Below, in pieces: positions 1,808 to 24,416 of a stretch of 64,000 nucleotides of DNA (position 1 is its first letter; each line of letters starts with the position of its first letter). A program made the translations under genes and the position numbers. Below the pieces are notes generated by a model. The model did not search any database. It was not told the origin of the DNA and saw nothing but the letters and a program-made list of their open reading frames with translations. This stretch comes from Deltaproteobacteria bacterium (GTDB taxonomy: Bacteria > Myxococcota > Kuafuiibacteriia > Kuafuiibacteriales > Kuafuiibacteriaceae). Location: contig JAVJQW010000019.1 of NCBI GenBank assembly GCA_040218735.1, forward strand, positions 288,001-352,000, written 5' to 3'.

Positions 1808-4800
1808 CAGCTCACCACGCCCTGACGCTCGAGCACCGTCGAGACCTGCTTGGACATGTGCGCGGGGATCGCGACCCGCCCGCCGCGGCGCATGCGCAAC
1901 ACGAGCCCGGCGTCTTCGAGGGGCAGGAGCGCACCGCCGGCTTCGTCGGGCGGGACGCCGAGCACCTCGGCGACCTCCACCTGCGACAGCGGACCGAAGC
2001 GCACGAGCAGGCCGAGCACCGCGAGCGCGTCCACGGGGATCTGCTCGCCGAACGGGATCGACGTCTGCGACGGCGGCTCGAGCAGCAGCGTGGTGTCGCC
2101 GTTCACCTTGATGCTCCGGACGTGCGCGAGGAGCGCCGCGCGGAGGTTGCCGCCCGAGACGCGGGTGACGGCGCGGTAGTAGTCGTCGGCGGCCTTCTGC
2201 GGGCGCCAGGCACGACCGAGGAAGCGTCGCTGCTCGTGCTCGGCGGTGAAGCCGGAGAGGCTCGTCCGGGCTTCGAGGACCTCGCGGACCTCCTGCACGG
2301 ACAGCGGTGCGAGTGTGAAGCGACGACCGAACGCGGCGGACAGCGGCGCCATCTCCTCGAGCAGCGCGAGCGCGGACGTGGACGTCGACGCGACCCAGTG
2401 TGTGAACGCGCTGGTCGACATGACCGTCTGCAAGAACCTCGAGAGGTCGTCGAGGCCCGCGGCGGTCGGGAGGACGTAGTGCTCGATGTCGTCGATCAGA
2501 ATGATCGTCGTCTTGCGACGGAGCGCGACGGAGATGGATCGCGGATCGGGGTTGGTGCGCAGCTCGCGGGCGATGGCGCGGACGAGGCCGCCGCGCCGCG
2601 AGTGGAAGCGCGGGTCGATGCGGAGCACGCGGTGTCGCGCGAGGCGGAGCTCGAGCGCGTTGACGACCGAGGTGCGGCCGCTGCCGTGGTCACCGATGAC
2701 GAGCACGTTGGCGAACTGCTCGGTGCGCCCGGGTTGGATCGACTTGATGAGCTGCTCGAGCTGCGGCTTGTAGGCGACCGCGAGGCGGAGGTCTTCGATC
2801 GGCTCGAGGCTGAAGACCTTCTGGTGGATCGGCGGCAGCGACAGCGCCGCGGGGTCCGGGACGAAGCGGTCCAGGTACTGCCGCATCTGGCTCGCGTCGA
2901 GGCGGCGCTGGCCCGAGCGGATCAGCCAGTCGCGCACCTGTCGCCCGCGGACGATCGCGATCGCGGCGTTGGCGACGCGGCGGCGGGCGCGCTGGAGCGA
3001 GCGACGCACGCGGTCGACGGCGTCGGCGACGGTGCGGCGCGTCGGCTGCCGGCCGCGGGGGCGCGGCGGGGTCCCGTCGCTGGTGACGAGGGCTTCGAGG
3101 TCGTGGCAGGTCTCCTCGGCGAGGGTGTCGAGCTCCTTCGACGCGACCTCCTGCGCCTCGGTGAGCTCGCGGACGTACTGGTCGAGGCGGTCGCGGCTGC
3201 GGGTGGTGGACTCTTTGACGATCGCGCGCCACGTGACGTCGTCGGTGGTCTTGCCGGCGTCGTTGCCCGCGTTGTCGAGGCCGAAGCTCGCGGCGCCCAT
3301 CGCTTCGTCGAGGCGGGTCTCGCCCTGCACGACGATGTCCGAGACGTCGCGTACGACGTCGAGCATCTGCGGCGCGAAGGACTCGATGAGGAGGCCCTCG
3401 ATGCGGTTCGCCACGGAGGACTTGCGGATCTCGATCTTCCGCACGTCCGGGATCGTGTCGGGTTCGATCAGCTCCAGCGACTTCGGCGCGAGCTCCACGA
3501 GCTCCGAGAGCTCGGCGAGCAGGTCGGACGCCTGCGTCGCGTGGCGGTACTTGTCGCGAAGCCCGGTGAAGCGGTTGCGCTCGCGTTTGGGGTACAGCTC
3601 CTCCGCGGCCGCTTCGATCTCCGCGCGCGGCGCGGGTTCGTCGCCCTCCAACGATTCGAGGAGGACCTCGAGGCGGCTCTTGAGCGTGGCGGCGATCGGG
3701 AGGAGGTCCGTCTCGACCACGTCGAGCGGGACACGCACGCGCTTCTTCACGATCGCGACGAACGCGTCGCGCACGCGCTCGACGGCGGCGGCGGCGCGCA
3801 GGGTGTCGTAGGCGGCGTCGACGACTTCACGCCAGCGCGCGGCGTCGCCCTCCAGGCGTTCGAGCGCGGCGCGTCCGATCGGTTCGACCGCGGAGAGGCG
3901 CAGCGCGGACGCCGGAACGCCGGGGCTGCCGACGAGTCCGTAGGCGTCGATCGTCGCGTGCATCCCGCGGTCCACGGCGTCGATGAGATCGCGCCGAACG
4001 TCGTCGAGGAACGCGGCGGTGATCAGGTCGATCGCCTGCCGGCACTCGTCCGCGGTGATCGCGCCGATCACGTGCTGGCGCGCTTGCCACACCAGCTTCA
4101 GCTGCGTCGCGAACCACTTCTCGCGTGCGTCGAGGAGCGCTTCGCACAGCCGCGCTTCGATCGCGATGCGTGCGATCATGCGCGTGGGGACGGTGCGCGT
4201 TCGGCCGGCGAGCGCGGGGAAGTTGCGGCGCCACCAGCGGGCGACGCGCGTTCGTCGTCGATCCTGTGGTCGGCGGATCAGGAGCGCCGCCGACATGGGG
4301 ACGGTGACGGCGGTGTCGACGGCACCGAGCGCCGTCTGCAGATCTTCGACGACCGCGAGCAGCTCCTTCTCGAGACCTTCGGCGACGTCGTCCAGGTCCT
4401 GCTCGAGCGCCTCCGCGACGTGCACGGGCGCGCCGGACTTGGACGCGCCCGGTTCGACGAACAGGCGGATGCTTGCCTTGCGGCCCCGGTCGGCGAGGGG
4501 CTGCAGCTGCTCTTCGATCAGCGCTTCGAAGCGGCCGCGGAGGGTGTCGTCGAGCCGATGAACGATCTCCACCAGCTCCGGTGCGTCGAGGCGTGACGGG
4601 TCGGGGCGGTCCGTCGGAACGGGCGCGGGGGCGTCGGACTCGGGCGCGGCCTCCGGCGCCTCTTCCTCCTCGCGGGACCCCACCTCGCCGGCGCGTTTGA
4701 ACGCCAACCCCATGAGCACGGGGCCGATGACCAAGTTGATCGCGACGAGCGCGAGCCCCGTGCGGTGCAAGGGATCTTGCAACACCGGGAGCGCCTTCTC

Positions 4801-5958
4801 CGCGAGTAACACGAGGCCGAGCGTCACGCCGGCTTGGGGTGTGAACGCCATCCACGCGTTCACACCGACCGCGCGATCCTCGTTCCCGATCCGCGCGCCG
4901 AGGAAGCCGGCGATCACAAACGCGAGGATGCGCGCGACGGTCAGCGCGAGCGCGAGCGGGAGGATCTTGTAGGTCCCGAAGAGGTCGACGCCGGCGCCCG
5001 CCGTCGTGAAGAACACGACGAACACCGGCAGCGACACCTTCACCAACGGCTCGAGCAGCTCGTGCTCGAACTTGGAGAAGTTACGGACCACGAAGCCAGC
5101 GGTGATGAACACCAACAGCAGCTCGGCGTGGAGGTAAGCGATCGCCTCCGCCGACAGCAGCACGCAGACGACGATCGCGAGCAGCATGTCGCGGTGTACG
5201 AAGCGCAGGTACAGGATCAGGATGACGCCGAGCGCTCCGCCGAAGACGAGGGAGACGCCGATCTCGCGCGCGAGGAGCAGGAACGACGCCGCGCTCATCG
5301 TCGCGCCGGGTTCCACGAGCGTGCGAACGATCGCGATGCTCACCGCGAGCGCGAGCACGACGACGAGGTCCTTCACCACGGAGATCGCGAGCGTGATGTC
5401 CGAGAGGCGCCCCTTCGCGCCGGACTCGTTGATCACCGCGAGCGCGATGGCGGGGGAGGTGCCGATGCCGAGCACCGCGACGATCACCGCGAGCCCGATG
5501 ACCATGTTGCCGTCCTCGACGCCGAGGAACGGGAAGAAGGTCTCGACGCCGTAGAACGTCCCGCCGACCAGCAACAGCAGCAGCGGGATCTTGAGCGCGA
5601 CCATCGCGGACAACGTGCGCCCGACCTTCTTGATCGCTTTGATGTCCAGCTCGAGGCCGGCGGTGGTGGCGATCAGCCCGAGCGCGAGGGTGTTGAACAC
5701 GCGCATGTCGCCGACGATCGTCGTGGTGAGGATCTGCGAGACCTGCGGCCCGAGCAGGATGCCGCTGGCGATGTAACCGGTGATCCGCGGCAGCTTGATC
5801 GCCGTCATCATCTCGCCGACGGTGAACGCCGCGAGCACGACGAACCCGATCGCCGCGAGTGTCATCGGGTCGGCCGCACCGCCGCCCGTCTCGGCGCGCA
5901 GCGCGGACAGCGCGGTCATCAGACCGAGCAGGCCGGCGAGGACGAGGATGCGGCGCAC
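1807..5958 (-). CDS. Cation:proton antiporter (CPA) fused to a long helical region and a C-terminal AAA/STAND-like P-loop NTPase with winged helix (1383 aa)
   Basis: The N-terminal ~425 aa has 12-13 TM helices with CPA motifs (LPRITGYIASGILLGP, GTSPAIALAVINE, PQAGVTLGL). The C-terminus has Walker A GDHGSGRT, Walker B IILIDDIE, SGGNLR and an HTH-like LSQVEVAEVLG...LEDAGLV. Confidence 0.8.
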   Translation of the reverse strand: MRRILVLAGLLGLMTALSALRAETGGGAADPMTLAAIGFVVLAAFTVGEMMTAIKLPRITGYIASGILLGPQVSQILTTTIVGDMRVFNTLALGLIATTAGLELDIKAIKKVGRTLSAMVALKIPLLLLLVGGTFYGVETFFPFLGVEDGNMVIGLAVIVAVLGIGTSPAIALAVINESGAKGRLSDITLAISVVKDLVVVLALAVSIAIVRTLVEPGATMSAASFLLLAREIGVSLVFGGALGVILILYLRFVHRDMLLAIVVCVLLSAEAIAYLHAELLLVFITAGFVVRNFSKFEHELLEPLVKVSLPVFVVFFTTAGAGVDLFGTYKILPLALALTVARILAFVIAGFLGARIGNEDRAVGVNAWMAFTPQAGVTLGLVLLAEKALPVLQDPLHRTGLALVAINLVIGPVLMGLAFKRAGEVGSREEEEAPEAAPESDAPAPVPTDRPDPSRLDAPELVEIVHRLDDTLRGRFEALIEEQLQPLADRGRKASIRLFVEPGASKSGAPVHVAEALEQDLDDVAEGLEKELLAVVEDLQTALGAVDTAVTVPMSAALLIRRPQDRRRTRVARWWRRNFPALAGRTRTVPTRMIARIAIEARLCEALLDAREKWFATQLKLVWQARQHVIGAITADECRQAIDLITAAFLDDVRRDLIDAVDRGMHATIDAYGLVGSPGVPASALRLSAVEPIGRAALERLEGDAARWREVVDAAYDTLRAAAAVERVRDAFVAIVKKRVRVPLDVVETDLLPIAATLKSRLEVLLESLEGDEPAPRAEIEAAAEELYPKRERNRFTGLRDKYRHATQASDLLAELSELVELAPKSLELIEPDTIPDVRKIEIRKSSVANRIEGLLIESFAPQMLDVVRDVSDIVVQGETRLDEAMGAASFGLDNAGNDAGKTTDDVTWRAIVKESTTRSRDRLDQYVRELTEAQEVASKELDTLAEETCHDLEALVTSDGTPPRPRGRQPTRRTVADAVDRVRRSLQRARRRVANAAIAIVRGRQVRDWLIRSGQRRLDASQMRQYLDRFVPDPAALSLPPIHQKVFSLEPIEDLRLAVAYKPQLEQLIKSIQPGRTEQFANVLVIGDHGSGRTSVVNALELRLARHRVLRIDPRFHSRRGGLVRAIARELRTNPDPRSISVALRRKTTIILIDDIEHYVLPTAAGLDDLSRFLQTVMSTSAFTHWVASTSTSALALLEEMAPLSAAFGRRFTLAPLSVQEVREVLEARTSLSGFTAEHEQRRFLGRAWRPQKAADDYYRAVTRVSGGNLRAALLAHVRSIKVNGDTTLLLEPPSQTSIPFGEQIPVDALAVLGLLVRFGPLSQVEVAEVLGVPPDEAGGALLPLEDAGLVLRMRRGGRVAIPAHMSKQVSTVLERQGVVS

Positions 5959-7191
5959 CTAGGAGACCTCCACCGGCAACGTCGGTCCCTCGGACTCGGG
6001 CGGGAGGCGATCGTGCTCGCCGGCGTCGACGAGGAACCGGCCGAGCGCCGCGCCGCTGGAGAGGTCCTGCACGACGAGCGCGGCGAGCACGGTGGTGAGG
6101 ACGATCGACGACTGCGCCGGGTACACCTGCGCGTAGCTCACCGCGATGGCGGCGCTGATTCCGCCCTGCGCCCACAGCGCGCTGCCGGCGCGGTGTACGC
6201 GGGGGAGGTCGTCGAAGAGATCGACCGCGATGTTCGCCGCGACGCGGAGGGTGAGGAGGCGAACCGCGACGTAGACGAGCGGCGCGAGCCACCACACGCC
6301 GAACACCGGGGACCACATCGCGCCGGCGAAGATCAGGACGGTCGTCACGGCGGGGCGTTCGAGCCGGGCGAGCTTCACGTGGAGCAGGCCGGAGTCCTTC
6401 GCGATCAGCGACACGACCACGCCGACGATCGCGTTGAGGAGCAACGGCGACATCCCGGCGGCCGAGGCCATGCCGCTCGCGAAGATGACGATGCCGACGG
6501 TCGCGAGGAAGAGGCGGTCGTCGCCCTCCTCGCGGTCCTTGCCCATGAACAGCGCGAACAGGACGCCGCAGGAGACGCCGAGGAGGATCAGCGCGACGAG
6601 CCATTCGGTCTGGGTGAGCGTGAAGCGGTTCGACGCTTGTGCGGATCTCGACAACGCGAGCGCGGTCCCGGAGATCGCGACGCCGAACACGGAGCCGGTC
6701 AGCGCGAAGCCGCGCAGCATGTCGGTCGCGTCGCCGCGCGCGCGGTGGAGGCGTACGCCGGACTCGACGGCCGCGGTGGAGATCGTCGCGGCCGCGCTGC
6801 CGATGGTGACGACGGGCCACAGGATCGGCTCCAGCGGCGAGGGATCGATCGGGAGGTAGAGCAGGCCGAAGTACAGGACCGCGCCGACGGTGCCGCCGAC
6901 GCCGAGCGCGATGACGAAGCCGCCGCCGAGGGCGGGGAGCGCGAGGAGCCGGCGTCGCAGCGCGAGACCGAGTGAGAAGCCGACGACGCCGAGGGTGAGC
7001 GAGACGAACGGTCGGATCGTGTCCATCACGTCCGTGTCGAGGAGGCGCAGGCCGAAGGGCCCCAGGAGCACGCCAATCACGACGTACCCCACCTCCGAGA
7101 CCCCGACTCGGGCCTTCGCGTAGCGGTTGAGCAACGCGCTCGCGAGGACCGCGAACACGACGACCAAGACGAGCGTGACGACGATCGGCAA
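5959..7191 (-). CDS. Cation:proton antiporter-like membrane protein (~410 aa)
   Basis: Probable TTG start at 7191 (LPIVVTLVLVVV...). It contains GYVVIGVLLGPFGL and about 12 TM helices, and its stop abuts the next gene's start. Confidence 0.75.
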   Translation of the reverse strand: MPIVVTLVLVVVFAVLASALLNRYAKARVGVSEVGYVVIGVLLGPFGLRLLDTDVMDTIRPFVSLTLGVVGFSLGLALRRRLLALPALGGGFVIALGVGGTVGAVLYFGLLYLPIDPSPLEPILWPVVTIGSAAATISTAAVESGVRLHRARGDATDMLRGFALTGSVFGVAISGTALALSRSAQASNRFTLTQTEWLVALILLGVSCGVLFALFMGKDREEGDDRLFLATVGIVIFASGMASAAGMSPLLLNAIVGVVVSLIAKDSGLLHVKLARLERPAVTTVLIFAGAMWSPVFGVWWLAPLVYVAVRLLTLRVAANIAVDLFDDLPRVHRAGSALWAQGGISAAIAVSYAQVYPAQSSIVLTTVLAALVVQDLSSGAALGRFLVDAGEHDRLPPESEGPTLPVEVS

Positions 7192-7287
7192 CGCGCGTCG
7201 ATCAAGGCGGCTTGCGAGGGCCGAGTCAAACAATTGGCGGTGGGTCGCTGTGTCGCCGGATGGGGGGTAGACTCGTCGCCGGTCGCG

Positions 7288-8358
7288 ATGGCTTCGATCG
7301 TGGTGGTGGATGGCGGGTCGTCGTTCGGGGCGGAGCTCGTCGGACGTTTGTTCGGCGCGGGCCGAGACGTCCTCGTGGCGCCGACGATCGACGTCGCGCT
7401 CGAACGTATCGCGCGGTTTCCTCCCGAGGTCGTCTTCGTCTTCCACGATCCGCCGGTGCAAGACGGCGCGGAGATCGCGCGGTCCGCGCGCGCGGCGGAC
7501 GATCACGTGTTGGTGATCGTCGGCGGGCAGTGCGCGCCTTTGGACCCGATACCGGGCGTGCAGGCGATGTTCTCTCCGGCGCTGTCCGCCACGAACGTCG
7601 CGCGGGCGATCATGGTCGCGGCGGACGAGCGGATGCGGAGCGAAGAGGCCGAGACGCCGCCGATCTTGCCCGACGAGCTGGTCGACACCTCCGACGACAT
7701 CACGCCGGTCGGCCAGGACGCGGTGCAGGTGCTCCGCGCCGCACTCGAGTCGTCGCAGGCTGCGCAGCAAGCGCTCGCCGGTACGCAGACGCCGTCGTTG
7801 ATCGCGGACGACGTCCCCGACGTCACGGTGCGCCCCCGCGCGGTGTCGACCGCCGGTGCGCCGCGTTGGACGCCGGGGCAGTTCGATCAGATCGCGGAGT
7901 CCGATCTGTTCATGGCGCCGTCGGCGTCACCGCTCGACGCGTCGTTCTTCCGCGACGTGCCCGCGGCCGACGAGCTCCCGTCGGTGCAAGACGCGCTGTG
8001 CGGTGCGCTCGTCTCGGAGATCGACGGCGCCGTCGCAGCGGGGCTCGTCGATCTCGACGCCGCGGCGCTCGTCGGCCAGCACTACCCCGACGACCTGACG
8101 CGCCAGGTGCTCGAGTCGATCGCGCCGATGGTCGTGGCGATGTTCAACGGTGAGGCGCTCGCGCGTTTCGAGGACGTCGTGCACGAGGAGGGCGCCGTGC
8201 AGTCGATCGTCGTGTCGACCGCGGTGACGCACCATGTGTTGCGCGGGATCGGCGAGCGCTTCGTGGTGGTGCTCGTCGTCCCGACGATGTTGGAGCTCGA
8301 CCGGGTACGCGAACGCCTCGAAGCGCTGCTGCCCGGCCTCCACGCGAACCTCAGCTGA
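7288..8358 (+). CDS. Degenerate receiver-like domain, acidic linker and C-terminal Roadblock/LC7-like domain protein
   Basis: The N-terminus MASIVVVDGG...ALERIARFPPEVVFV resembles a REC fold without canonical phospho-acceptor residues. The C-terminus (EIDGAVAAGLVDLD...VQSIVVSTAVTHHVLRGIGERFVVVLVV) matches a Roadblock pattern. Confidence 0.6.
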   Translation: MASIVVVDGGSSFGAELVGRLFGAGRDVLVAPTIDVALERIARFPPEVVFVFHDPPVQDGAEIARSARAADDHVLVIVGGQCAPLDPIPGVQAMFSPALSATNVARAIMVAADERMRSEEAETPPILPDELVDTSDDITPVGQDAVQVLRAALESSQAAQQALAGTQTPSLIADDVPDVTVRPRAVSTAGAPRWTPGQFDQIAESDLFMAPSASPLDASFFRDVPAADELPSVQDALCGALVSEIDGAVAAGLVDLDAAALVGQHYPDDLTRQVLESIAPMVVAMFNGEALARFEDVVHEEGAVQSIVVSTAVTHHVLRGIGERFVVVLVVPTMLELDRVRERLEALLPGLHANLS

Positions 8359-9415
8359 CGGCGCGCACCGCTTCGAGCCACCCCGTGCCGAAGCGATCGT
8401 CCGGCTCGAGGTAGTGCCCCTCCGACCACTCGTTGAGCGAGGCGACGAACACCCACGGGCTGCCGTAGTCCGCCGCGCGGGTGAGCGCCGCGCGGAAGTG
8501 GTCGGGGTGCTCGCCGACCACGACCGGCGACCACGGGTACTTGTCGGGGCGTTTGTCTCCGAAGTCCGCGCCGCGCGGTGAGGCGTCCCAGCCCGGCGCG
8601 ACGGAGGGCATGTACGGGAGCGTCCCTTCGCGGGCGAAGTGGTCCCAGCGCTCGGCGCTGATCCTCGCGCGCTCGGCGTAGTCCTGCAGGAACGGCCCGC
8701 GCCAGTCCGGGAGGAGCACGTAGTGCGTCACGCTGTCGAAGCCGACCTCGCGGACGTGAGGGAGCACGTCGTAGGCGGGATCGATCGCGGCGAAGTGCGG
8801 ATCGCCGACGCCGTTCGATCGGCACCACCGCCGCGCGCGCTCGATCGCGCGACGCGCGTCATCGAGGCCGAGCTCGTGCAGGAAGAACGTCGAGTCGAAG
8901 ATCGAAAAGTAAGGGCGCCCGTCGATCCGCAGGTAGTTGTCGCGCGCGAAGTAACGCTCGCCGACGTAAGCGATCAGCGCTTCGAAGTCGTCGACGTCCG
9001 TCTCGACGAGGCGGTCGTGTGCGATGACCGGGAGGTCCGAACGGCGCACCGGCAACACCCGACGCGGCATGCGGTTCGCCCACATCAACGCAAACGGTGT
9101 GTCGCGCCCGAGGGGCGATCCGAGGAAGCCGAGGTCGAGCCCGTCCTGGAACACCCGCTTCCCGCGACACCAGAAGAAGCCGTACACAAACGCATCCACG
9201 CCGTGATCCCGCGCGAGCGTGACGCGCGCGGCGAGCGCCTCCGGGTCGCGGTCGTCGTAGGGACCGAGCGCCGGGACCTTCGGCTGCGCGTGCCCCTCGA
9301 AGCGCGGGCGGCAGTCCCTCACGAGGTCCCACTCCGTGAAGCCCGGGTAGAACGATGCGTCGCGCTCCGGGATCGGGTGCCAGCCCGGGTAGACGTACGC
9401 AGCGATCCGAACCAT
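8351..9415 (-). CDS. WbsX-like / glycoside hydrolase family 99-like protein
   Basis: Motifs AAYVYPGWH...GFTEW...PRFEGHAQPKVPALGPYD...ARDHGVDAF, MWAN and SLNEWSEGHYLEPD are typical of the WbsX/GH99-like family. Confidence 0.85.
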   Translation of the reverse strand: MVRIAAYVYPGWHPIPERDASFYPGFTEWDLVRDCRPRFEGHAQPKVPALGPYDDRDPEALAARVTLARDHGVDAFVYGFFWCRGKRVFQDGLDLGFLGSPLGRDTPFALMWANRMPRRVLPVRRSDLPVIAHDRLVETDVDDFEALIAYVGERYFARDNYLRIDGRPYFSIFDSTFFLHELGLDDARRAIERARRWCRSNGVGDPHFAAIDPAYDVLPHVREVGFDSVTHYVLLPDWRGPFLQDYAERARISAERWDHFAREGTLPYMPSVAPGWDASPRGADFGDKRPDKYPWSPVVVGEHPDHFRAALTRAADYGSPWVFVASLNEWSEGHYLEPDDRFGTGWLEAVRAVS

Positions 9416-10707
9416 CAGAGCGTCAGGCGCCGGTTGGCGCCTTCCGTCGAGGACACCACGAGCTCGCAGACGAGGTCACCCTTCGAAACGCAGCGCGTCT
9501 CCTCCACCCGCCACGGCAGGCCGCCCTCGAGGAGCCGGTCGTAGAAGTCACCCGAGAGTGAAGGGCGACTCGTCCAGGGGACACGGTGGGCGAGCTGCAT
9601 CGTGGCGAGTGCCGCACCCTGCATGAAGTAACACGCGCCCTCCGTCGCCCGCCCTTCGCGGTGCACGTAGTAACAACTCTCGTAGGTCGCGGGGACGCGG
9701 AGCACGAGGCGCTGGTGCGGGACGATCTCCTCGATGCACCACCGACCGAGGCCCATCGCACGCCCGATCGCACACGCGCCGATCACGATCTCTTCGACTT
9801 CACCGCGGAGCGGACCGCCCTGCGTCTCCCACTGCGGGGACATCAGGATGTGGCCGAACGCGTTGAACGTGCCGACGTGCGCGGCCTCCCGGAGGAGCGC
9901 CTTCATCACGCGGACCGACTGCGGCGCGATGCGCGCGACGTGCCTCAACGCGTCGTACGCCGCGCGGTTGTAGTACGTCGCGGGGGTCAGCGCGAAGTAG
10001 AGCCCGAACGCACGCAGGCGACCGTCCGGATCCGCGAACAGCTTCGACGCGTGGTTTCTCAGGCGCTCCGCGAGCACCGCCACCGCGGTCTCGTCGACGC
10101 TCGAGATCGGCTCCAAACGTGTGCGCTCCACGTGCTCGCGGAGCACCGGGCGCATCAGCGGGGCCTGGTCCATCGGACGCAGCGCGAAGCGACAGTTCGG
10201 GACATCGAGGACGACGCAGGGCTCTTCGGTGGCGTCGACTGACTCCCGCGGGAGCCCGTGCACGACCTCCATCGCCGCGGCCGCGTAACCGGCGGTGACG
10301 GCGTCGGCGGGGCGGCGGCGGTACATCCTCTCGCCGTACTTCTCTCGCCAGCAGGTGCCGTGGTGCAGGTGGGTCCCTTCGGCGAGGCCGCTGTTGCCGC
10401 CGACGCCCATGCGGAGGGTGCCGTGACCGAGCGTGGCGAAGAGGGCTTCGGCGAGGGCGCGCTGCTCCTTCTCACCCTCGACCGCGAGGAGGTCGAGCAG
10501 CCGCGCGATGACGTCGTAGAACGCTTCGCGCGCGGCGCGCGTGCGGACGACGGCGCCGAGCTGGGCGCCGAGCGCGTCGTCGATCGTCTGGTCCCAGAAC
10601 AGGTTGAAGTGGTGGCAGTGGTAGACGATCGGGACGTCGGCCAGCAGCTCGAAGTCGTAGCCGCTGAGGGTGGTGCGGTGCTCGGCGATTCGCGCGAGGT
10701 CCGCCAT
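9415..10707 (-). CDS. Tandem V4R (4-vinyl reductase-like) domain protein (430 aa)
   Basis: Two halves each show a G-[HL]-G motif, then AGY/MQG, then E-x-x-C-x6-C-x-[FL] (EEPCVVLDVPNCRF; ETRCVSKGDLVCEL). There is also an N-terminal YHCHHFN motif. Confidence 0.75.
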   Translation of the reverse strand: MADLARIAEHRTTLSGYDFELLADVPIVYHCHHFNLFWDQTIDDALGAQLGAVVRTRAAREAFYDVIARLLDLLAVEGEKEQRALAEALFATLGHGTLRMGVGGNSGLAEGTHLHHGTCWREKYGERMYRRRPADAVTAGYAAAAMEVVHGLPRESVDATEEPCVVLDVPNCRFALRPMDQAPLMRPVLREHVERTRLEPISSVDETAVAVLAERLRNHASKLFADPDGRLRAFGLYFALTPATYYNRAAYDALRHVARIAPQSVRVMKALLREAAHVGTFNAFGHILMSPQWETQGGPLRGEVEEIVIGACAIGRAMGLGRWCIEEIVPHQRLVLRVPATYESCYYVHREGRATEGACYFMQGAALATMQLAHRVPWTSRPSLSGDFYDRLLEGGLPWRVEETRCVSKGDLVCELVVSSTEGANRRLTL

Positions 10708-10711
10708 CGCT

Positions 10712-11785
10712 TCAGATACCGACGGGGTCTTGTCCGAGGATGTCGCGAATCGAATCGGCGATGGCGTCGACCTGGGCGTCGTCGAGCGCGTCGGGGGCTT
10801 CGAGGAGATCGACCGGGATGCCGGTGCGCAGCGAGAGCCTCAACAACGCCGCGTGGGGATCGGGCGCGTAGCGACGGAAGAAGTCGAGCAGGCGCGTCGC
10901 GCGCGGACGGGCGACTGGGCGCGTGGGGACGTCGGGGATCGGGGAGGGCGGCGGCGACGCGGGCTTCAACGCTTCGTCCAGCTCCGTGCGATCGAACCGG
11001 CCCGTGATCTCCCCCTCGCTCGACGGCGACTCCACGGGCTGCGGGGTGATCGTCAGATCCCCAGGCAGCGGCGTCGGGTCGGGGCCCATCGTCGCCTCGG
11101 CGACGAACGGCGTGACCTCCCGCGTGAACGCGTCGGCGGCGCGCTTCGAGTCGAAGGTCGTGCTCGGCGGCGGCGGGACGCGCGGGGGCGGCGCTTCGAA
11201 GATCGGCGTCGGCGCGGGCTGCGTCGGGCGACGCACGCGCGGGACGCCGAGCGGCGGCGTCTCACCCGTGGGGTCCGAGACGGTCGGCCCGAAGCGCGGT
11301 GTGGCGCGCTCCTCGGTCGACGGCGACGAGAACCGTGGCGCGGCCGGCATCGCGCGGTCCGCGGACGACGCCGGGACCCGCTTCACGGTGCCGGTGTCCA
11401 TCGGCTTGGTGAACTGCTCGACCGACCCGCGGATGTGATCGCGGAGCTGGCGCGCCTGCACGCGCATGAGGCCGAGCGGCGCGGAGCGCTCGAAGACAAA
11501 CGCCGCCATCATCCCGGTCGTGACCTGCTCGAGGCGGATGAGGGTGTCGCGGGCTTCGACGGTGACACCTTCGACCGCTTCGCTCCCCACCGCGGTGGTG
11601 AGCGCGGTGACGCTCGCGCGGAACACCGAGCCGAGCTGCACGGCGGTCTCTTCTTCGTTGGTCCGCCCGGCGCGCGCCCACGACTTGATGAGCAGGCAGT
11701 CGGGGATGGAGACGATGAACACCTCCTTGAGCGCCGGCGCGCCGAGCGCGACGCGGCCGAGATCCTCCCTTGCGGACGTCGCCAT
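10712..11785 (-). CDS. Roadblock/LC7 (MglB-like) domain, Pro-rich linker and small C-terminal helical domain
   Basis: The N-terminal ~115 aa has the Roadblock topology ending MAAFVFERSAPLGLMRVQARQL. It is followed by a ~180-aa P/S/T-rich linker and a C-terminal RLSLRTGIPVDLL helical bundle. Confidence 0.7.
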   Translation of the reverse strand: MATSAREDLGRVALGAPALKEVFIVSIPDCLLIKSWARAGRTNEEETAVQLGSVFRASVTALTTAVGSEAVEGVTVEARDTLIRLEQVTTGMMAAFVFERSAPLGLMRVQARQLRDHIRGSVEQFTKPMDTGTVKRVPASSADRAMPAAPRFSSPSTEERATPRFGPTVSDPTGETPPLGVPRVRRPTQPAPTPIFEAPPPRVPPPPSTTFDSKRAADAFTREVTPFVAEATMGPDPTPLPGDLTITPQPVESPSSEGEITGRFDRTELDEALKPASPPPSPIPDVPTRPVARPRATRLLDFFRRYAPDPHAALLRLSLRTGIPVDLLEAPDALDDAQVDAIADSIRDILGQDPVGI

Positions 11786-12424
11786 TCAGGACTCCTTCCA
11801 GTCGAACGTGCGCGCGATGTAGCGGCGGATGGACGTCACGACCGACTTCGACAGCGGCTTCGTGCCGACGACGCCGACCGCGATGCGGCCGACCGGCGTG
11901 TCACACCAGATCGTGTCGAGCGTGCGATCGGCGTCGAGCTCGATCGACGCGGCGCCGACGCTGGGCGCCTTGGTGATCCCGCGCAGCGATCGAATGGCCC
12001 GCTCCAGCGCGACGCCCGACACCACGAGGTCCTCGACGCTCTTCGTCACCGCGATCGGCAACCCCTCTGGGTCCGCGATGTAGAAGTCGTCGCCGACGAC
12101 CTGCGCGAGCCACGCCGAGAGCGCTTCGATTCGCGCCCACACCGAGGGGGCGTCGAGGTTCGGCTCCTCCGCGGCGTCCGTCGAGGCGGTGACGTCGTTG
12201 AACGACCCCTCCTTGGTCTCGGGGAGGGGCGTGGCCTCGACCGACGAAGGCGGGTGGTTGGGGTACGGCGTGATCGGCGGTACCGGCGCGCGCGTCAGGG
12301 TCGGCGGGTCGTAGAACCGCGGCGTCGACGAAGGACGGGTGGAGATCGGGAGCGTCGACACTCCGGCGCGCGTCAGCGAGGACGCGAGGGTGTCTTCGTC
12401 AATCCACGAGAGCGATGGGCTCAT
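11786..12424 (-). CDS. Short N-terminal helix, Pro-rich linker and Roadblock/longin-like domain protein
   Basis: The C-terminal FYIADPEGLPIA...IELDADRTLDTIWCDTPVGRIAVGVVG fits the Roadblock hhhhDxxGLhh signature. It abuts the downstream gene with a 0-bp gap. Confidence 0.6.
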   Translation of the reverse strand: MSPSLSWIDEDTLASSLTRAGVSTLPISTRPSSTPRFYDPPTLTRAPVPPITPYPNHPPSSVEATPLPETKEGSFNDVTASTDAAEEPNLDAPSVWARIEALSAWLAQVVGDDFYIADPEGLPIAVTKSVEDLVVSGVALERAIRSLRGITKAPSVGAASIELDADRTLDTIWCDTPVGRIAVGVVGTKPLSKSVVTSIRRYIARTFDWKES

Positions 12425-13202
12425 TGCTCATGCCTCGTTCGTCGATGGCGATGCGGGACTCGAGCTCCGCCGCCAGTTGGTCGAAGACCATCGCCACGGG
12501 CGGGGGCCTTCGCTTGAGTAGACCAACCGGGACGCCGTTGGCGCTGGCGTCGAGGAAGACCGAGTCGCGCGGGATGGAGGTGTCGAACAGCAGCGACTGC
12601 GGCAGCGACGCCCACAGATCCTCGGCGACACCGAGGGAGCTGGCCTGCCGGGTCTGCAGCATCGTGAGGAGGATGCCGACGACCTCGGTGTTGGCGCCCT
12701 TCTCGCGGAGGCTCCCGAGCACGTCGAAGATGCGCAGCACGGAGCGCGCGGCGATCGGTTCGGCCTGCACCGGGCACAGGACGTACCGGCACGCGCGCAT
12801 CGCGCCCATCGTCGCGCCGCCGAACCCGCTCGGCGTGTCGACGATGATCAGCTCGCGGTCCGACGCCTCACGTTCGATGCGCTTCAGGACGGCGCCGTCG
12901 GCGAGCGCCGCCTGAAACCCCATCGCGTCCTCGGGCGCGACGCGGCCGACCGTCAGGATCTGCAGCTCGGGGAGCTTGGTCTGCACGGCGAGCTGCGCGA
13001 GCGGGCGGCGGTGCACGATGTACTCCGCGAGGCCGGGCGACTGGCTGAGCTTCTTGGTGAGCGACAGGCCGATGGCCCCGGCGGGATCGGTGTCGACGAG
13101 CAGCGTCCGCAGGCCGCGGCGGGCGAGCGAGAAGGCCAGGTTGAGGGCCACGGTCGTCTTGCCGACGCCCCCCTTCTGGCTCGCTACGCACAACGACACC
13201 AT
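12399..13202 (-). CDS. ParA/MinD/Soj-family ATPase (267 aa)
   Basis: The true start is ATG 13202. It has a deviant Walker A SQKGGVGKTT, LLVDTDPAG and IIVDTP. No parB is adjacent. Confidence 0.9.
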   Translation of the reverse strand: MVSLCVASQKGGVGKTTVALNLAFSLARRGLRTLLVDTDPAGAIGLSLTKKLSQSPGLAEYIVHRRPLAQLAVQTKLPELQILTVGRVAPEDAMGFQAALADGAVLKRIEREASDRELIIVDTPSGFGGATMGAMRACRYVLCPVQAEPIAARSVLRIFDVLGSLREKGANTEVVGILLTMLQTRQASSLGVAEDLWASLPQSLLFDTSIPRDSVFLDASANGVPVGLLKRRPPPVAMVFDQLAAELESRIAIDERGMSNEPIALVD

Positions 13203-13231
13203 CGGACAGGATCTATTTCGCAAACGCGACC

Positions 13232-14032
13232 TCACCGCAAGGCGCGGTCGTGTAACAGGTGACAGGTGAGCTCCGCGAAGCCCTCGCCGCCCTCGCGCTC
13301 GGTCACGTATGCGGGGGGTGATGTCAGACGATCCGTGAACGCGCGGATGTTCGCGACGCCGACGCTGTGCTCGAAGAAGCCGAACGCGGGCTCGTCGTTG
13401 GGCGAGTCGCCGACGTACACGGCGCGCTGCCGGACCTCGGGGCGGTCGAGGTCGAGGTCGAGGACCTCGCGGGCGACGCGTCGGATCATGCCGAGTTTGT
13501 CGTAGGTGCCGAACCACCCGTTGACGTGGATGGAGCTCACTTTCGCGGTCGCGCCCGCGGCTTCGAAGATCTCCACGATCCGATCCACGTCTGCGCGCTC
13601 GAGGGGTTCGACGTCCTCGCAGAAGTCGATCGCGAGATCGTGGATGCGGTAGGGCTGGTCCGACGCGACGCCGGCGCCCGGGACCGCGGCGAGGATCTGC
13701 GCCTTCACCTCGGCGAGGCGGGTCTGGAGGGTCGCGCGCTCCTCGGCGCTCAGCACGAACGCCTGGTGGAGGCGGCGCGCGGATCGGTCGTAGCTGAAGT
13801 AGAACGCGCCGTTTTCACCGACGACGCCGGCCACCGGCCAAAAGCGCGCAATCATGTCGCACCACCCGGCGGGGCGGCCGGTGACGGGCACCACGGGGAT
13901 GCCGGCGTCGGCGAGCTTTTCGACCGCTTCGTAGGCGACGGCGGGTAGGCGCCCCTCGGTGGTGAGGGTGTCGTCGATGTCGCAGAAGACGGCGCGGATG
14001 TCGGCGGCGGGGAGCGCTTCGAAGGATTGCAT
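13232..14032 (-). CDS. HAD-superfamily hydrolase, subfamily IIB
   Basis: Motifs DIDDTLT, VTGRPAGW, K in YDKLG, and GDSPND. Confidence 0.9.
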   Translation of the reverse strand: MQSFEALPAADIRAVFCDIDDTLTTEGRLPAVAYEAVEKLADAGIPVVPVTGRPAGWCDMIARFWPVAGVVGENGAFYFSYDRSARRLHQAFVLSAEERATLQTRLAEVKAQILAAVPGAGVASDQPYRIHDLAIDFCEDVEPLERADVDRIVEIFEAAGATAKVSSIHVNGWFGTYDKLGMIRRVAREVLDLDLDRPEVRQRAVYVGDSPNDEPAFGFFEHSVGVANIRAFTDRLTSPPAYVTEREGGEGFAELTCHLLHDRALR

Positions 14033-14039
14033 CGGTCGT

Positions 14040-15101
14040 TCAGGCCAGCAGCTGCACGCGCTGCTCGACGGGCTCGGTGGGCTTGTCGCCGCGTTCGGCC
14101 TGTTTGAGCAAGCGCCAGATGTGGCCGCCGAGCAGATCCACGTCGGTGGAGACGAACTGCTCGCCGTCGAAGCGCTGCACGACGTCGGTCTGCGCCTGGA
14201 GCATGACGACGTCCTGCTTCAGGACCCGCATCGCGATCGGGGTGGCGACGAGGCGGAGCAGGAACGCCGGGACGATCGTCTTGAACGTCACCACCGCGAA
14301 CAGCCTGGTGACGAAGTCCGACACCGGCGTGAGCGCGCTGGTCGCGATGACCCGGTGCCGGTCGGCGAGCCCGTACTCGACCTGCGCGATCGAGGGGAGG
14401 ATGAACCGGTCGAAGTGCGTCACCGTGCCGCCCTGCGGCGCGAGGATGCTGCCGATGAGCCCGGTCGGGCGCGGCTCGCCGATGAACTCCGCCGATACCC
14501 GGTCGGCCTCGCGTCGAACTACCGCCGTGATCTCGTTCCGCTTCACGCCGCGGAACAGGCCGCGGTGGAGGAACGCCGTGTGCGGGACGTCGAGGATGTT
14601 CTCGCAGGTCGCGTGCAGCGTCGCCGGCACCTCGGCGTCGTAGCGCACCGTCGCGAAGCCGGGCTCGTCGAGGTGCGGGAGCTGGTACGGCCCGACCTCC
14701 GGCTCGTGGTCCGGGTCCATGTACACCCAGACGAACCCCTGCGACTCACGCGCGAAGAAACGCGGCACCCGCCGACCCTTCCCGGTCTGCACGCCGCACA
14801 GCGCGGGCACCCGCTGGCACGCGCCTTCACGATCGAAGGTCCACCCGTGGTAGCCGCACACGAGCTGGCCGCTCTCCACCGCGCCCATCGACAGCGGCAC
14901 GTTGCGATGCGCGCAGCGATCCAGGAGCGCGCTCGGCTGTCCGTCTTCGTCGCGGAAGAGCACGAGCGGCGTGTCGAGGATCGTGACGGCGAGCGGCTTC
15001 GCGCCGAGCGCGCCGGAGTGACACGCGACGTACCAGGCGCGCGTCACCCGCGCGACGGAGTACCGGCGCTTCGGCGCGGGGATGATCGGCGCGGTGTCCA
15101 C
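14040..15101 (-). CDS. Rieske non-heme iron oxygenase alpha subunit (VanA-like)
   Basis: Rieske motif DRCAHR...CGYHGW and mononuclear iron motif ENILDVPHTAFLH. Confidence 0.9.
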   Translation of the reverse strand: MDTAPIIPAPKRRYSVARVTRAWYVACHSGALGAKPLAVTILDTPLVLFRDEDGQPSALLDRCAHRNVPLSMGAVESGQLVCGYHGWTFDREGACQRVPALCGVQTGKGRRVPRFFARESQGFVWVYMDPDHEPEVGPYQLPHLDEPGFATVRYDAEVPATLHATCENILDVPHTAFLHRGLFRGVKRNEITAVVRREADRVSAEFIGEPRPTGLIGSILAPQGGTVTHFDRFILPSIAQVEYGLADRHRVIATSALTPVSDFVTRLFAVVTFKTIVPAFLLRLVATPIAMRVLKQDVVMLQAQTDVVQRFDGEQFVSTDVDLLGGHIWRLLKQAERGDKPTEPVEQRVQLLA

Positions 15102-15173
15102 GGCGCCGCGCGATCATAACAAACGGGCACCGCTGGCCAACTTGCGTCGGTGGTTCGGAGCGCGATCCCGGGG

Positions 15174-15377
15174 CTCACTGAGGCGCTCGACATCGCGCGG
15201 CGAGGCGGAAAACGGCAGGCGGCGCCGTTCTCGAAAGGCGCCGCAGAAGCCGGGCCGGAAGAAGCGCGAGGACCACGGCCCGAAGGAACGGCGGAAGGTG
15301 CTGTCGCGCATCGTTGCAAGGTGCCTGGATGGGCCACTCCGTGCGCCTGTCCGAACTGCGGCGGCGGAAGCCGCTGA
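15174..15377 (+). pseudogene. Frameshifted IS66-family transposase (TnpC) N-terminal remnant
   Basis: Frame A reads RRGGKRQAAPFSKG, frame B reads KPGRKKREDHG...RRKV, and frame A then reads CPNCGG-stop. This is the motif order of the leader and zinc-finger region of IS66 TnpC, recognised from memory. Confidence 0.55.
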
Positions 15378-15408
15378 CGATTATCGTCGATCGTCGTCGG
15401 TGGTCCGA

Positions 15409-15909
15409 TCAGGCGCCGAGAGTGGGCGCTGCGGACGTGTGGATGACGTCCACACCGAACCCGCGGCAGGCGTTCAGCAGAGGCGAATCGGACGTGACGA
15501 GGGTGGCATGGTCTTGGTCGGCGGCAGCAATGACGGATGCGTCAACGACCCCGAATCTGCGGATCAGATCTGGTCGAAGCAACGCGAGTCTTACCGGGGA
15601 GTCATCGACACGAAGGCGCACGAGTTCCTCGACATAGTGCATCCGAAACCTCTCGAGCCACGACCCGCGTCGCCGTAGACACTGTTCGGCGTGGGCGTCG
15701 AGTTCCGCGAGAACGTAGTGGGTCGTCAGCACATGGGCTCGCGCCAGGAGCTGCTCGAACCTCTCCGCGACAATCGTCGAATTCACATACGAGATCCTCT
15801 GTTCGAGCTGCGCGAGCGCGGCAGCTGCGTCGTGGAACCCGCGACTCTGATCGATGAATTTGGCCGCGACGACATCCAGCAAGGGACCCGTATCGAGACA
15901 GAGCCTCAT
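15409..15909 (-). CDS. PIN-domain (VapC-like) ribonuclease
   Basis: Acidic motifs LCLDTG, TTHYVLAEL, GVVDASVIAAA and LVTSD. Confidence 0.8.
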   Translation of the reverse strand: MRLCLDTGPLLDVVAAKFIDQSRGFHDAAAALAQLEQRISYVNSTIVAERFEQLLARAHVLTTHYVLAELDAHAEQCLRRRGSWLERFRMHYVEELVRLRVDDSPVRLALLRPDLIRRFGVVDASVIAAADQDHATLVTSDSPLLNACRGFGVDVIHTSAAPTLGA

Positions 15910-15915
15910 CGCGCC

Positions 15916-16587
15916 TCACCCGGCAGGAGCGGGTGGGATGTCGTATCTGTCGCATAGCCGTGTACGTTGCGATTCGATCGACGCGATGAGCGAGGCCGCA
16001 TCAGTAACGACGTGCTCCTTCGCAGTATGCGCCGCCACGACCTCGGGCTTGCTCGCGAACTTGGCAAAGTAGGTCTCGTTCATCGCAGACCAATAGGGAG
16101 CCAGGCCATTCGTTGGTTCAATCTCGCGCAGTCCGTTCACGATGCGCGTGGCCGCATTGGCTGGGAGCGATGAAAAGTCGGCGTTGTTCCAACTTCTGAA
16201 GATTCCAGTAGAGGCGATGTCTTCTCGCCTCGCGAGGTCCGACGCCGCACTCACGAATTCGGCATCGGAAATGAGTGACTCGTGCGCCGCCTGGCATGCC
16301 TGACGAAAAGCCTCGATGGCTTTCCCGTGTTCCTCGAGATCGTCGGCAAGGTCCGACGTCGTGTTCGCGAGAAGGTCGTCCAGCAGCATCTGTGCGTTCG
16401 GGAGCAGGTACTCTTTGGGGGCCCGCAGCAGACCGTAGCCCCTATCGCGTCGCCAAACGAGAGTGGGCTTCATCATGACCTCGCGCTCGGCATGGAGCGC
16501 GGCAATGAGTGGGTTCATTGCTCCGTGAATCCAGGCTTGAACTCGGGGCGAGTGCTTCTCAGGCGTCCATGTTGGCCGGGCGACCAT
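15916..16587 (-). CDS. Hypothetical helical protein, coupled to the PIN gene
   Basis: A 223-aa ORF with visibly lower GC and atypical codon usage, ending 6 bp upstream of the PIN gene start. Confidence 0.6.
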   Translation of the reverse strand: MVARPTWTPEKHSPRVQAWIHGAMNPLIAALHAEREVMMKPTLVWRRDRGYGLLRAPKEYLLPNAQMLLDDLLANTTSDLADDLEEHGKAIEAFRQACQAAHESLISDAEFVSAASDLARREDIASTGIFRSWNNADFSSLPANAATRIVNGLREIEPTNGLAPYWSAMNETYFAKFASKPEVVAAHTAKEHVVTDAASLIASIESQRTRLCDRYDIPPAPAG

Positions 16588-16825
16588 TTTAGAACCTGAC
16601 CACGAGCGTCATGCAGAGGCAATCCCGGACCAAAGCGATGAACCCGGCAGAACACTCGCTCGGGAACCAGGACCGAGACGCTTCGGAGGTGGCTCGGACG
16701 ATGAAGCGAGGGCGCTCGTGTGTGCACGAGACGTCGTCGCTGGAGCCGTGGTGCTCGCAAATCGAAGAGCTGTTCATGTGCTTCCTGCCGTGACGCGTCG
16801 CGCTCGGAATCACCGATCCTCTTCC

Positions 16826-22563: not shown

Positions 22564-22631
22564 GAGGGGAGCGCCGTCGATCGGATTAGCGCGTGGCCGG
22601 GGGTTCACGGCGACCCCGGACGACGCGGGCG

Positions 22632-24384: not shown

Positions 24385-24416
24385 CTACGCGCGCTCGCAT
24401 TCGGGTACGGCACGCA

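Follow-up and report, generated by a model that had tools for sequence, protein, structure and literature searches.

Roadblock proteins of the MglB type regulate small Ras-like GTPases, and the ATPases of the ParA/MinD family are positioning machines that work with peptide-bearing partners. Genes related to both kinds meet in the locus described here, which lies in a stretch of 64,000 nucleotides (hereafter the window) from the genome of a Deltaproteobacteria bacterium assigned to the Myxococcota (GenBank assembly GCA_040218735.1, contig JAVJQW010000019.1, positions 288,001 to 352,000). The locus encodes a ParA/MinD-type ATPase (ParA), two putative Roadblock-type proteins (RbS and RbP) and a protein with two predicted V4R domains in tandem (V4R2). 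We found that these four genes form a conserved module in Myxococcota and Acidobacteriota, to which a small protein (X) and adaptors of the PATAN, TPR or REC type also belong, and that the copy present in the window is a derived and reduced one.

The closest described system is MglA-MglB of Myxococcus xanthus, with its components MglC, RomR/RomX, SgmX and FrzS. A profile of RbP matches MglB structures, both RbP and MglB are extended at the C-terminus, RbP is accompanied by a further Roadblock-type protein (RbS) and a P-loop NTPase is encoded directly upstream; moreover, PATAN, TPR and REC proteins as well as kinases are encoded near the module, which may be compared with the TPR and REC effectors SgmX and FrzS. 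In contrast, the NTPase of the module is of the ParA/MinD type (SIMIBI class, active as a dimer) instead of the Ras-like type, the module loci yielded no MglA homologue while a canonical mglA-mglB pair exists elsewhere in the genome, two distinct Roadblock proteins stand where MglB forms a homodimer, and the tandem V4R protein and X are additional.

That some ParA proteins displace MglA in systems centred on MglA-MglB is stated in an October 2026 preprint (10.64898/2026.10.19.760177, Figure 2B panel 16), in which, as in our locus, a ParA beside MglB-like proteins is seen as the switch. The core idea is therefore already in print, in two short passages of that preprint, and the original prediction, which had been made from the sequence of the window and had called the system undescribed, holds in part: the displacement of MglA by ParA has been described, and the full composition of the module appears in no passage of the preprint that was available. 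New with respect to those passages are this composition (two Roadblock proteins, tandem V4R, X and the adaptors), the overlapping reading frames, the phyletic spread and the derived copy in the window. No experimental study of the module was found in the full-text literature, where the sole mention was this preprint, whose figures and supplements may show more.

The module also resembles ParABS, MinDE, PomXYZ, McdAB and BcsQ-BcsR in joining a deviant Walker A ATPase to a co-transcribed partner with an N-terminal peptide and a disordered linker. It differs from all of them in that its partners are putative Roadblock-type proteins and a V4R protein, which are found in none of these systems, and from ParABS in having no ParB at the module.

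Conservation and gene order of the module

In a survey of one genome per GTDB species, 133 V4R2 loci were confirmed by tblastn and 80 of them were kept; according to the titles of the records, 61 were myxobacterial or 'Deltaproteobacteria', 10 belonged to the Acidobacteriota and nine carried unspecific or other labels. Gene order was counted in the 68 loci that had 2300 bp or more of sequence on the upstream side of V4R2. Of these, 66 contained RbP, 65 RbS and 61 ParA, locus L049 being scored as lacking RbP only through the choice of an over-long open reading frame (ORF). Because ParA-RbS-RbP lay upstream of V4R2 on the same strand in 60/68 loci, the linkage of the four genes is beyond chance. 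The synteny recurs across genera, and V4R2 homologues were found in 13 of 41 related genomes. The survey thus bore out the prediction that ParA, two Roadblock-type proteins and the tandem V4R protein are kept together, and it did so in two phyla.

Other genes belong to the conserved unit. When the neighbours were clustered (in the first clustering, ORFs of at least 90 aa only), an adaptor family of PATAN/TPR/REC type was found in 63/80 loci. Among the 66 loci with enough flanking sequence, 59 had a gene of this type somewhere in the locus and 43 had one upstream in the same orientation; of 72 adaptor ORFs scanned with Pfam, 28 matched DUF4388/PATAN, 30 TPR_2 and 13 Response_reg. Next in frequency among the neighbours came kinases, those of the Ser/Thr type in 16 loci and histidine kinases in 12. 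Directly 3' of V4R2, in 75/80 loci, we found X, a protein of approximately 100 aa with the motif L.RD..C.R.L.W ... GH.VV.VPRTGRVQ(I/L)R..Y.TP, whose gene starts at a median of 23 nt past the V4R2 stop (at ~9250-9600 in related loci); two of the five loci scored as lacking X are truncated contigs. Pfam gave no consistent family for X (18 families with one member each, 40 sequences scanned), and hhalign of X against the Roadblock-type domains gave nothing. The genes beyond X often encode REC-PATAN proteins, histidine kinases or Ser/Thr kinases. The canonical module can thus be written as adaptor - ParA - RbS - RbP - V4R2 - X - (REC-PATAN...), and it is whole in L118 and on contig C26 of the genome to which the window belongs. 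In consequence, the unit that had been proposed was right for ParA-RbS-RbP-V4R2, missed X and the PATAN/TPR/REC adaptors and wrongly included a WbsX-family enzyme, which is treated below.

A tblastn search (E<=0.01) with the MglA of the same genome (C28:9280-9870) detected no MglA-like GTPase in the window or in 91 related loci; a very divergent GTPase could escape this single query. The order of the genes, the families to which they belong, their translational coupling and the lack of a GTPase next to them are, at these loci, matters of observation.

Two copies of the module may occur in one genome. In that of the window, the second copy is the canonical paralogue on C26 (G000:C26:~20500-25200, equal to L020:6581-11164), with the order ParA-RbS-RbP-V4R2-X-REC-DUF4388, whereas the window copy lies on C41. 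On C26, REC-DUF4388 is followed by a gene for a bestrophin and, in convergent orientation, one for a Ser/Thr kinase, and the gene 5' of ParA encodes a Cys-rich, probably secreted protein and not a PATAN/TPR adaptor. Genomes G041 and G042 likewise have two copies: an RbS-RbP-V4R2(-X) copy without ParA (L027/L037), located by folP and glmM-like genes, and a second one elsewhere with ParA-RbS-RbP (L104/L105). As a ParA-less copy is paired with a ParA-bearing one in these genomes, one ParA may serve two Roadblock/V4R sets. In another locus (L039:4076-7203), the place of ParA and RbS directly 5' of RbP-V4R2-X is taken by DUF4388/PATAN proteins, two or three in number, of which one has 401 aa and a score of 110 bits.

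When 301 genomes of the phylum were sampled, a V4R2-type protein was found in 28 (E<=1e-30), belonging to 21 of 126 genera. About 12 of these 28 genomes had the protein as a stand-alone type, so the distribution of the module is patchy.

The ParA ATPase

The start of the window ParA at MVSLCVASQKGGVGKTT agrees with all the relatives, although the ORF extends further upstream. The protein has a deviant Walker A motif (SQKGGVGKTT), the DTD motif (VDTDP) and a Walker B motif (IIVDTP), and the ParA/MinD signature KGGxxK[ST], the DxD aspartates and the Walker B Asp are all present; its tail is acidic and ends in ...EPIALVD. Pfam gave AAA_31 with 77.3 bits and CbiA with 63.5 bits, as well as CBP_BcsQ, and the nearest solved chain was 8ray_B, a 'ParA family protein' (expectation value, E, 4.8e-23), followed by Thermus Soj. 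Across 62 module ParAs, K10, G11, G12, G14, T16, T17, D39 and D122 are invariant, and K15 and D37 are conserved in at least 90%. The module consensus also contains the sensor-1 glutamine of DxDPQ, a likeness to the PriB1 clade as described in passages of the preprint (10.64898/2026.10.19.760177), from which it differs at the second residue ahead of the Walker A Lys, this being Ser in the module and Asn in PriB1; the window ParA differs further, with Ala in place of the Gln.

Two known assignments were considered and rejected. BcsQ (TIGR03371) was the best NCBIfam model for the window ParA, with 81.6 bits against a cut-off of 157.85, and no bcs genes were found among the conserved neighbours, so that a BcsQ cellulose subunit was not accepted. 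A search of the genome for ParB_N gave three matches, on contigs C9, C3 and C7, and none on the window contig C41; with no adjacent parB, a ParABS partition system was discarded too. The ATPase had been described beforehand as an orphan member of the ParA/MinD family, and both the family (by Pfam and motifs) and the lack of a ParB_N match on its contig are in line with that description.

The Roadblock-type proteins and the overlapping frames

A profile made from 10 RbP sequences matched MglB of M. xanthus in the PDB (6h5b_B, E 3e-6, profile positions 18-123) and other MglB/Robl chains as well; with a profile of 77 sequences, eight of nine matches were MglB, 6h5b_B being found at 2e-4. Pfam recognised Robl_LC7 (PF03259) in 4/77 members of the family and gave no match for the window RbP alone. 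The profile matches confirm, at their level, the prediction of RbP as a Roadblock/MglB-like protein, which the original description had given a Pro-rich linker and a helical tail. The long Pro-rich linker is limited to the clade of the window, most relatives being of approximately 192 aa. For the C-terminal domain Pfam yielded only LPD22 (9/77, best 0.0054) and HicB (4/77), matches too weak for a family to be named. In an Atlas model of RbP the neighbours were Roadblock-like, with TM values by row of 0.69-0.79, which may be taken as a lead only. RbS and RbP are separate in L018, where a stop lies between them.

RbS has another plan, consisting of a conserved peptide at the extreme N-terminus (MSPSLSWID..L in the window, M..SLSWID..L..LL in the family), a variable Pro-rich linker and a C-terminal domain of approximately 115 aa. 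The family comprises 979 cluster representatives at E<=1e-3. When 150 of its members were scanned with Pfam, 22 matched Robl_LC7 (best 6.9e-5), 13 matched LAMTOR5 (best 6.5e-6) and no more than two matched any other family; a smaller set of 72 gave 11 and 7 matches to LAMTOR5 and Robl_LC7, respectively. The window RbS itself had no Pfam match. Four RbS profiles found no Roadblock chain in the PDB, the top rows (among them ribosomal protein S6 designs and a chloride channel, all with E>0.04) being treated as chance, and hhalign of RbS against RbP reached a probability of 0.4-1.1%. The matches support, at the family level, RbS as a probable divergent member of the Roadblock superfamily; the first of the two Roadblock claims found this support among the relatives, while the window protein and the PDB profiles gave it no match.

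The parA and RbS frames overlap. The overlap between the parA stop and the RbS start was 23, 26, 29, 32 or 35 nt, always 3n+2, in 40 of 62 loci; another 17 were left unmeasured, their 'S.FLPD'-type N-termini falling outside the motif pattern, and five gave odd values, probably owing to the choice of start codon. The ParA tail has as consensus an acidic run followed by P-I-x-L-[VLF]-[DA], and the ParA stop TGA falls within the W-I-[DE] codons of RbS. Because of the overlap, the tail of ParA and the N-terminal peptide of RbS are written in the same DNA, 23-35 nt being shared in two frames (window 12399-12424), and this was seen across Myxococcota and Acidobacteriota.

The tandem V4R protein

The window V4R2 matched PF02830 with 27.7 bits, below the cut-off of 31, and over the last 22 model residues only. 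In its family, 11 of 12 members matched PF02830 at E<=1 (best 8.1e-11), the C-terminal half being the part recognised. The first half gave a weak match to the V4R structure MJ1460 (2osd, E 0.16), and the two halves aligned with each other in hhalign (probability 68.8%, E 4.5e-5, 99 columns) with their E...C...C motifs in register. These results support the prediction that V4R2 is composed of two V4R domains in tandem, which had been proposed from the window protein. In the first half H115, E161, C164 and C172 are invariant in 81/81 sequences. The HCHH.N motif (H30, C31, H32 and H33) is also invariant, an invariance that is biased because HCHH was the seed pattern of the locus search. The window protein deviates at six positions otherwise conserved in 76-80 of the 81 sequences. 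According to passages of PMC10933270, a comparable Zn site and a ligand cavity are present in V4R/TRAPPC3 proteins, and V4R is the prokaryotic relative of TRAPPC3/Bet3 (PMC10933270, citing Podar 2008).

Double-V4R proteins with 315-490 bits to the V4R2 profile were also found as stand-alone genes (L114-L117, in genomes G204, G189, G191 and G106, as well as L022 and L023), with ParA, RbS, RbP and X all absent nearby. One large family of the phylum has them in many of its genomes, and they form a separate subfamily.

The derived copy in the window

The features of the locus (7288-15101) are collected in Table 1, where genes, starts and junctions are those of the ORF coordinates; all the fold assignments of module proteins rest on sequence profiles.

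Table 1. Genes and domains of the window locus, and X of the paralogous copy
Feature	Size	Position	Strand	Basis
Convergent gene	356 aa	7288-8358	(+)	ORF coordinates, homologue coverage
Convergent gene, receiver-like N-terminus		~7288-7617	(+)	weak YycF match, alignment
Convergent gene, conserved C-terminal domain (Cdom)		7990-8355	(+)	common to REC-DUF4388-Cdom proteins
WbsX-family glycan enzyme	354 aa	8351-9415	(-)	PF14307
V4R2, predicted tandem V4R protein	430 aa	9415-10707	(-)	ORF coordinates, PF02830 in family
RbP	357 aa	10712-11785	(-)	ORF coordinates, MglB profile match
RbP, C-terminal helical domain RPRAxRLL.F..RYAPDPHAALLRLSLRTGI...	~65 aa	10715-10909	(-)	rich in invariant residues
RbP, predicted N-terminal MglB-like Roadblock domain	residues ~1-125	11411-11785	(-)	profile match to MglB
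RbS	212 aa	11786-12424	(-)	ORF coordinates, family alignments
RbS, C-terminal domain, putative Roadblock superfamily	residues ~90-209	11795-12154	(-)	family-level Pfam
ParA/MinD-type ATPase	267 aa	12399-13202	(-)	ORF coordinates and Pfam
HAD-type hydrolase		13232-14032	(-)	Pfam Hydrolase_3
Rieske/VanA-type oxygenase		14040-15101	(-)	Pfam Rieske and VanA_C
X of the paralogous copy		L020:9756-10082 = C26:23761-24075		motif and position

The ORFs of ParA and RbS overlap by 26 nt in the window, RbS and RbP are separated by 0 nt and RbP and V4R2 by 4 nt, V4R2 and WbsX overlap by 1 nt (ATGA, translational coupling) and the 3' ends of WbsX and the convergent gene overlap by 8 nt; the five junctions had all been reported beforehand and were reproduced from the ORF coordinates. 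Upstream of ParA, the gap to the HAD gene is 29 nt and that between the HAD and Rieske genes 7 nt, distances so short that both genes are probably co-transcribed with the module. They adjoin it only in L013, L014 and L018 among the related genomes and in L024 and L025 among the 80 loci. The sole promoter-like match in the region 6800-15600 was located at 15140-15113(-), just 5' of the Rieske gene (a match to the consensus only), while the terminator-like matches of the same scan were disregarded, as they lay inside coding regions. Since the only promoter-like match precedes the Rieske gene, the transcription unit may comprise seven genes, from Rieske through WbsX.

The enzyme encoded after V4R2 matched WbsX (PF14307) along the full model with an E value of 1.2e-48 and 166.9 bits, against a cut-off of 25.1, whereas GH99 (PF16317) gave 16.8 bits, below its cut-off of 33; from the WbsX/GH99 assignment of the original prediction, the WbsX part remains. 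Its gene is single-copy in the genome and stands beside the module only in the window and in a genus-mate (87% identity), that is, in 1/80 related loci (L024; L013 is the same genus-mate contig), where it takes the slot of X after V4R2. WbsX is, in consequence, a genus-specific add-on and not a conserved part of the module. X was not found in the window, the sole X of the genome being that of C26.

Other traits set the window copy apart. The HAD and Rieske genes stand where the upstream adaptor usually does, no upstream PATAN/TPR/REC adaptor is present, and long Pro-rich linkers are carried. As a sister genus (G004, L014/L025) still retains X and a convergent REC-like-DUF4388-Cdom gene, the losses and the insertion of WbsX in the genus of the window are recent, and the window locus is a derived, reduced copy of the conserved module. 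With X and the adaptor lost, the REC-PATAN partner decayed and WbsX inserted, this copy may be specialised, or may rely on the canonical paralogue elsewhere in the genome.

The decayed partner is the convergent gene, whose start at 7288 suits the homologues that cover 95% of the longer ORF. Its product consists of a receiver-like part, a low-complexity linker and the Cdom. Pfam gave no match, including PF00072 and PF14332, and the only match obtained was a weak one to YycF with an E value of 0.057; in the alignment, F, G and S stand in the columns of the receiver acceptor Asp, Thr and Lys, which supports, as had been proposed, the reading of the N-terminus as a degenerate receiver. Of 17 homologues of the Cdom, 15 contain PF14332 and 13 contain PF00072, and the alignment of the convergent protein with its homologues has a gap at PATAN. 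The protein is best read, from this alignment, as a REC-PATAN-Cdom partner decayed to a pseudo-receiver plus Cdom, PATAN having been lost. It had also been taken for a third Roadblock protein, which we could not confirm: Roadblock families were found by Pfam in 0/15 Cdom members, Cdom profiles matched no Roadblock chain in the PDB, and hhalign of the Cdom was insignificant with RbS and reached a probability of 6.5-6.7% with the RbP domain (111-112 columns end to end, E 0.0055), which leaves a Roadblock assignment of the Cdom unsupported. A search for stand-alone homologues of the Cdom gave one unannotated protein.

Around the locus, two small ORFs of no known family lie at 15409-15909 (-) and 15916-16587 (-), and the G+C content dips to 0.63-0.66 just upstream of the Rieske gene (profile 15001-17000; flanks of approximately 0.70), a segment which may be inserted DNA. 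On the other side, a gene at 1807-5958 (-) encodes an unusual fusion of 1383 aa, with an N-terminal Na+/H+ exchanger membrane domain and a long soluble AAA_22/AAA_16 P-loop region; directly 5' of it and coupled to it is the gene of a 410-aa membrane protein without Pfam match (5959-7191, (-)). Both are kept in the genus-mate (L013).

Proposed function and alternative explanations

Taken together, the Roadblock, PATAN, TPR, REC and kinase genes and the lack of a GTPase nearby point to a switch as the most likely function of the module. It would be nucleotide-dependent in the manner of MglA/MglB, the ParA ATPase taking the role of MglA, a proposal to which we give roughly even chances. The invariant catalytic motifs of ParA, its coupling to RbS, the occurrence of two copies in one genome and the passages of the preprint count in its favour as well. 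The ATP-bound ParA dimer would be the counterpart of MglA-GTP, and the ATP-dimer cycle would replace the GTPase cycle. RbS and RbP would pair as a Roadblock heterodimer and control the nucleotide state of ParA, by stimulating ATP hydrolysis or by release, acting through the N-terminal peptide of RbS, the tethered C-terminal domain of RbP, or both. V4R2 could be a pseudo-dimer that binds a small ligand at its conserved His/Glu/Cys site and modulates the Roadblock pair, and the PATAN/TPR/REC proteins would tie the switch to two-component or kinase inputs and outputs; physical contacts, direction of regulation and cellular output are, in this scheme, what we infer from the genes. MglB has a regulatory C-terminal helix, which the tethered domain of RbP may resemble, and the RbS peptide on its flexible linker would be analogous to the activating peptides of ParA/MinD partners. 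That the single tblastn query detected no MglA-like GTPase in 91 loci fits the suggestion that ParA stands in place of the GTPase; the loci without ParA tell the other way.

These loci are the first of several points that weigh against the switch. ParA is not adjacent in L027, L037, L039, L074 and L101, which have RbS-RbP-V4R2 or RbP-V4R2 only, and no module-type ParA was found anywhere in the metagenome-assembled genomes G043-G045, which contain L039, L074 and L101 (best scores of 133-149 bits, versus approximately 365), so that the RbS-RbP-V4R2 trio may work without ParA. Double-V4R proteins are also found alone (L022, L023 and L114-L117). Profiles of RbS match neither RbP nor any Roadblock chain of known structure significantly, and its N-terminus may be conserved in part because the same DNA encodes the tail of ParA. 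In known partners of ParA the N-terminal peptide is usually basic, whereas that of RbS is not consistently so. Finally, the window copy may not behave like the canonical module, because six near-invariant positions of V4R2 are changed and X is missing.

Four other explanations were weighed, and we rank them in the order cargo positioning, cofactor or metal maturation, localisation of WbsX, and defence. The module could be a diffusion-ratchet positioning system comparable to PomXYZ or McdAB, with ParA-ATP on the nucleoid or membrane, RbS as activating adaptor and RbS, RbP, V4R2 and X as cargo. The full deviant Walker A set, with Soj/ParA as the closest structures, and the tight translational coupling of ParA and RbS speak for it, as does the conserved N-terminal peptide of RbS followed by a disordered linker, a layout typical of activating partners of ParA/MinD (cf. 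PMC7993993 and PMC13170346). Nevertheless, Roadblock, PATAN, TPR, REC and kinase genes are the context of switch and signalling modules and not of known cargo systems, some loci have no ParA and the C-terminal tail of ParA is acidic, which leaves positioning an unlikely function, if the strongest of the four.

We consider it improbable that the module matures a cofactor or metal centre, either with ParA as an insertase or chaperone like CooC, HypB or Mrp for the His/Cys site of V4R2, or with V4R2 as a BchJ-like enzyme, the Roadblock proteins being accessory. The invariant H30, C31, H32, H33, H115, E161, C164 and C172 of V4R2, the Rieske oxygenase and HAD hydrolase upstream in the family of the window, and the recruitment of ParA clades to metal-cluster biogenesis, stated in passages of the preprint (10.64898/2026.10.19.760177), are in its favour. 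Against this, no Cys is conserved in the 62 module ParA sequences and hence there is no bridging-cluster motif, the Rieske and HAD neighbours are restricted to one family while most loci are flanked by signalling genes, and the Cys/Glu site may be the structural Zn site of V4R/PoxR mentioned in part of PMC10933270.

The version of the original prediction, a ligand-sensing module that localises a WbsX/GH99-like glycan enzyme, appears quite improbable. It has on its side the ATGA coupling of WbsX to V4R2, the confident match to PF14307 and an arrangement kept in the genus-mate with 87% identity. However, WbsX as the localised output finds no support in view of its presence next to the module at 1/80 loci (L024) and in none of the other members of the family of the window, of its position in a slot held by X in 75/80 loci and of the paralogous module on C26, which has no WbsX.

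A defence system against phages or mobile elements, composed of ParA and V4R, is very improbable. Passages of the preprint tie some ParA-V4R fusions and ParA-wHTH (winged helix-turn-helix)-V4R proteins to immunity (10.64898/2026.10.19.760177), but they file the MglB-associated ParA under cellular switch functions. Moreover, PADLOC gave P-loop-level matches for ParA only and none for the remaining five proteins, effector domains such as nucleases or TIR were not found among the conserved neighbours, and the order is kept in two phyla, with paralogous copies per genome and in a housekeeping or signalling context.

A bolder form of the switch proposal is that RbS, RbP, V4R2 and X make up a bacterial platform, similar to TRAPP/Ragulator, which senses a ligand and sets the nucleotide state of a SIMIBI ParA; we regard it as rather unlikely. 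The likeness to the eukaryotic and Asgard TRAPP/Ragulator is one of fold inventory, two V4R and two Roadblock-type domains being encoded with an NTPase. The differences are that the NTPase of the module is an ATPase of another class and that the Roadblock fold is related to, and not identical with, the longin fold of TRAPP subunits. In addition, the module genes form an operon, whereas in Asgard, according to passages of PMC10933270, the genes for GTPase, RB and TRAPPC3 proteins generally do not lie in operons.

Significance

For annotation, the present results place WbsX outside the unit and X and the PATAN/TPR/REC adaptors inside it, and they flag the window copy as a reduced derivative, so that a canonical copy is a better start for experiments. 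The locus is less novel and less related to glycans than had been held, and its interest lies in bacterial polarity and in the origin of platforms of the TRAPP/Ragulator kind.

Roadblock-type proteins and ParA are joined in one coupled operon in Myxococcota and Acidobacteriota. If the switch proposal is true, a Roadblock platform would control an ATPase of a different class, and five or six proteins would form a testable set. The tandem V4R protein is a candidate for the ligand input, and the fold inventory equals that of TRAPP-type exchange factors, which bears on the origins of such platforms. If the platform reading were true as well, a regulator of a P-loop switch with Bet3 and Roadblock/longin folds would exist as a bacterial operon, wired to an ATPase, and this bacterial design would be older than that of eukaryotes and Asgard or run parallel to it.

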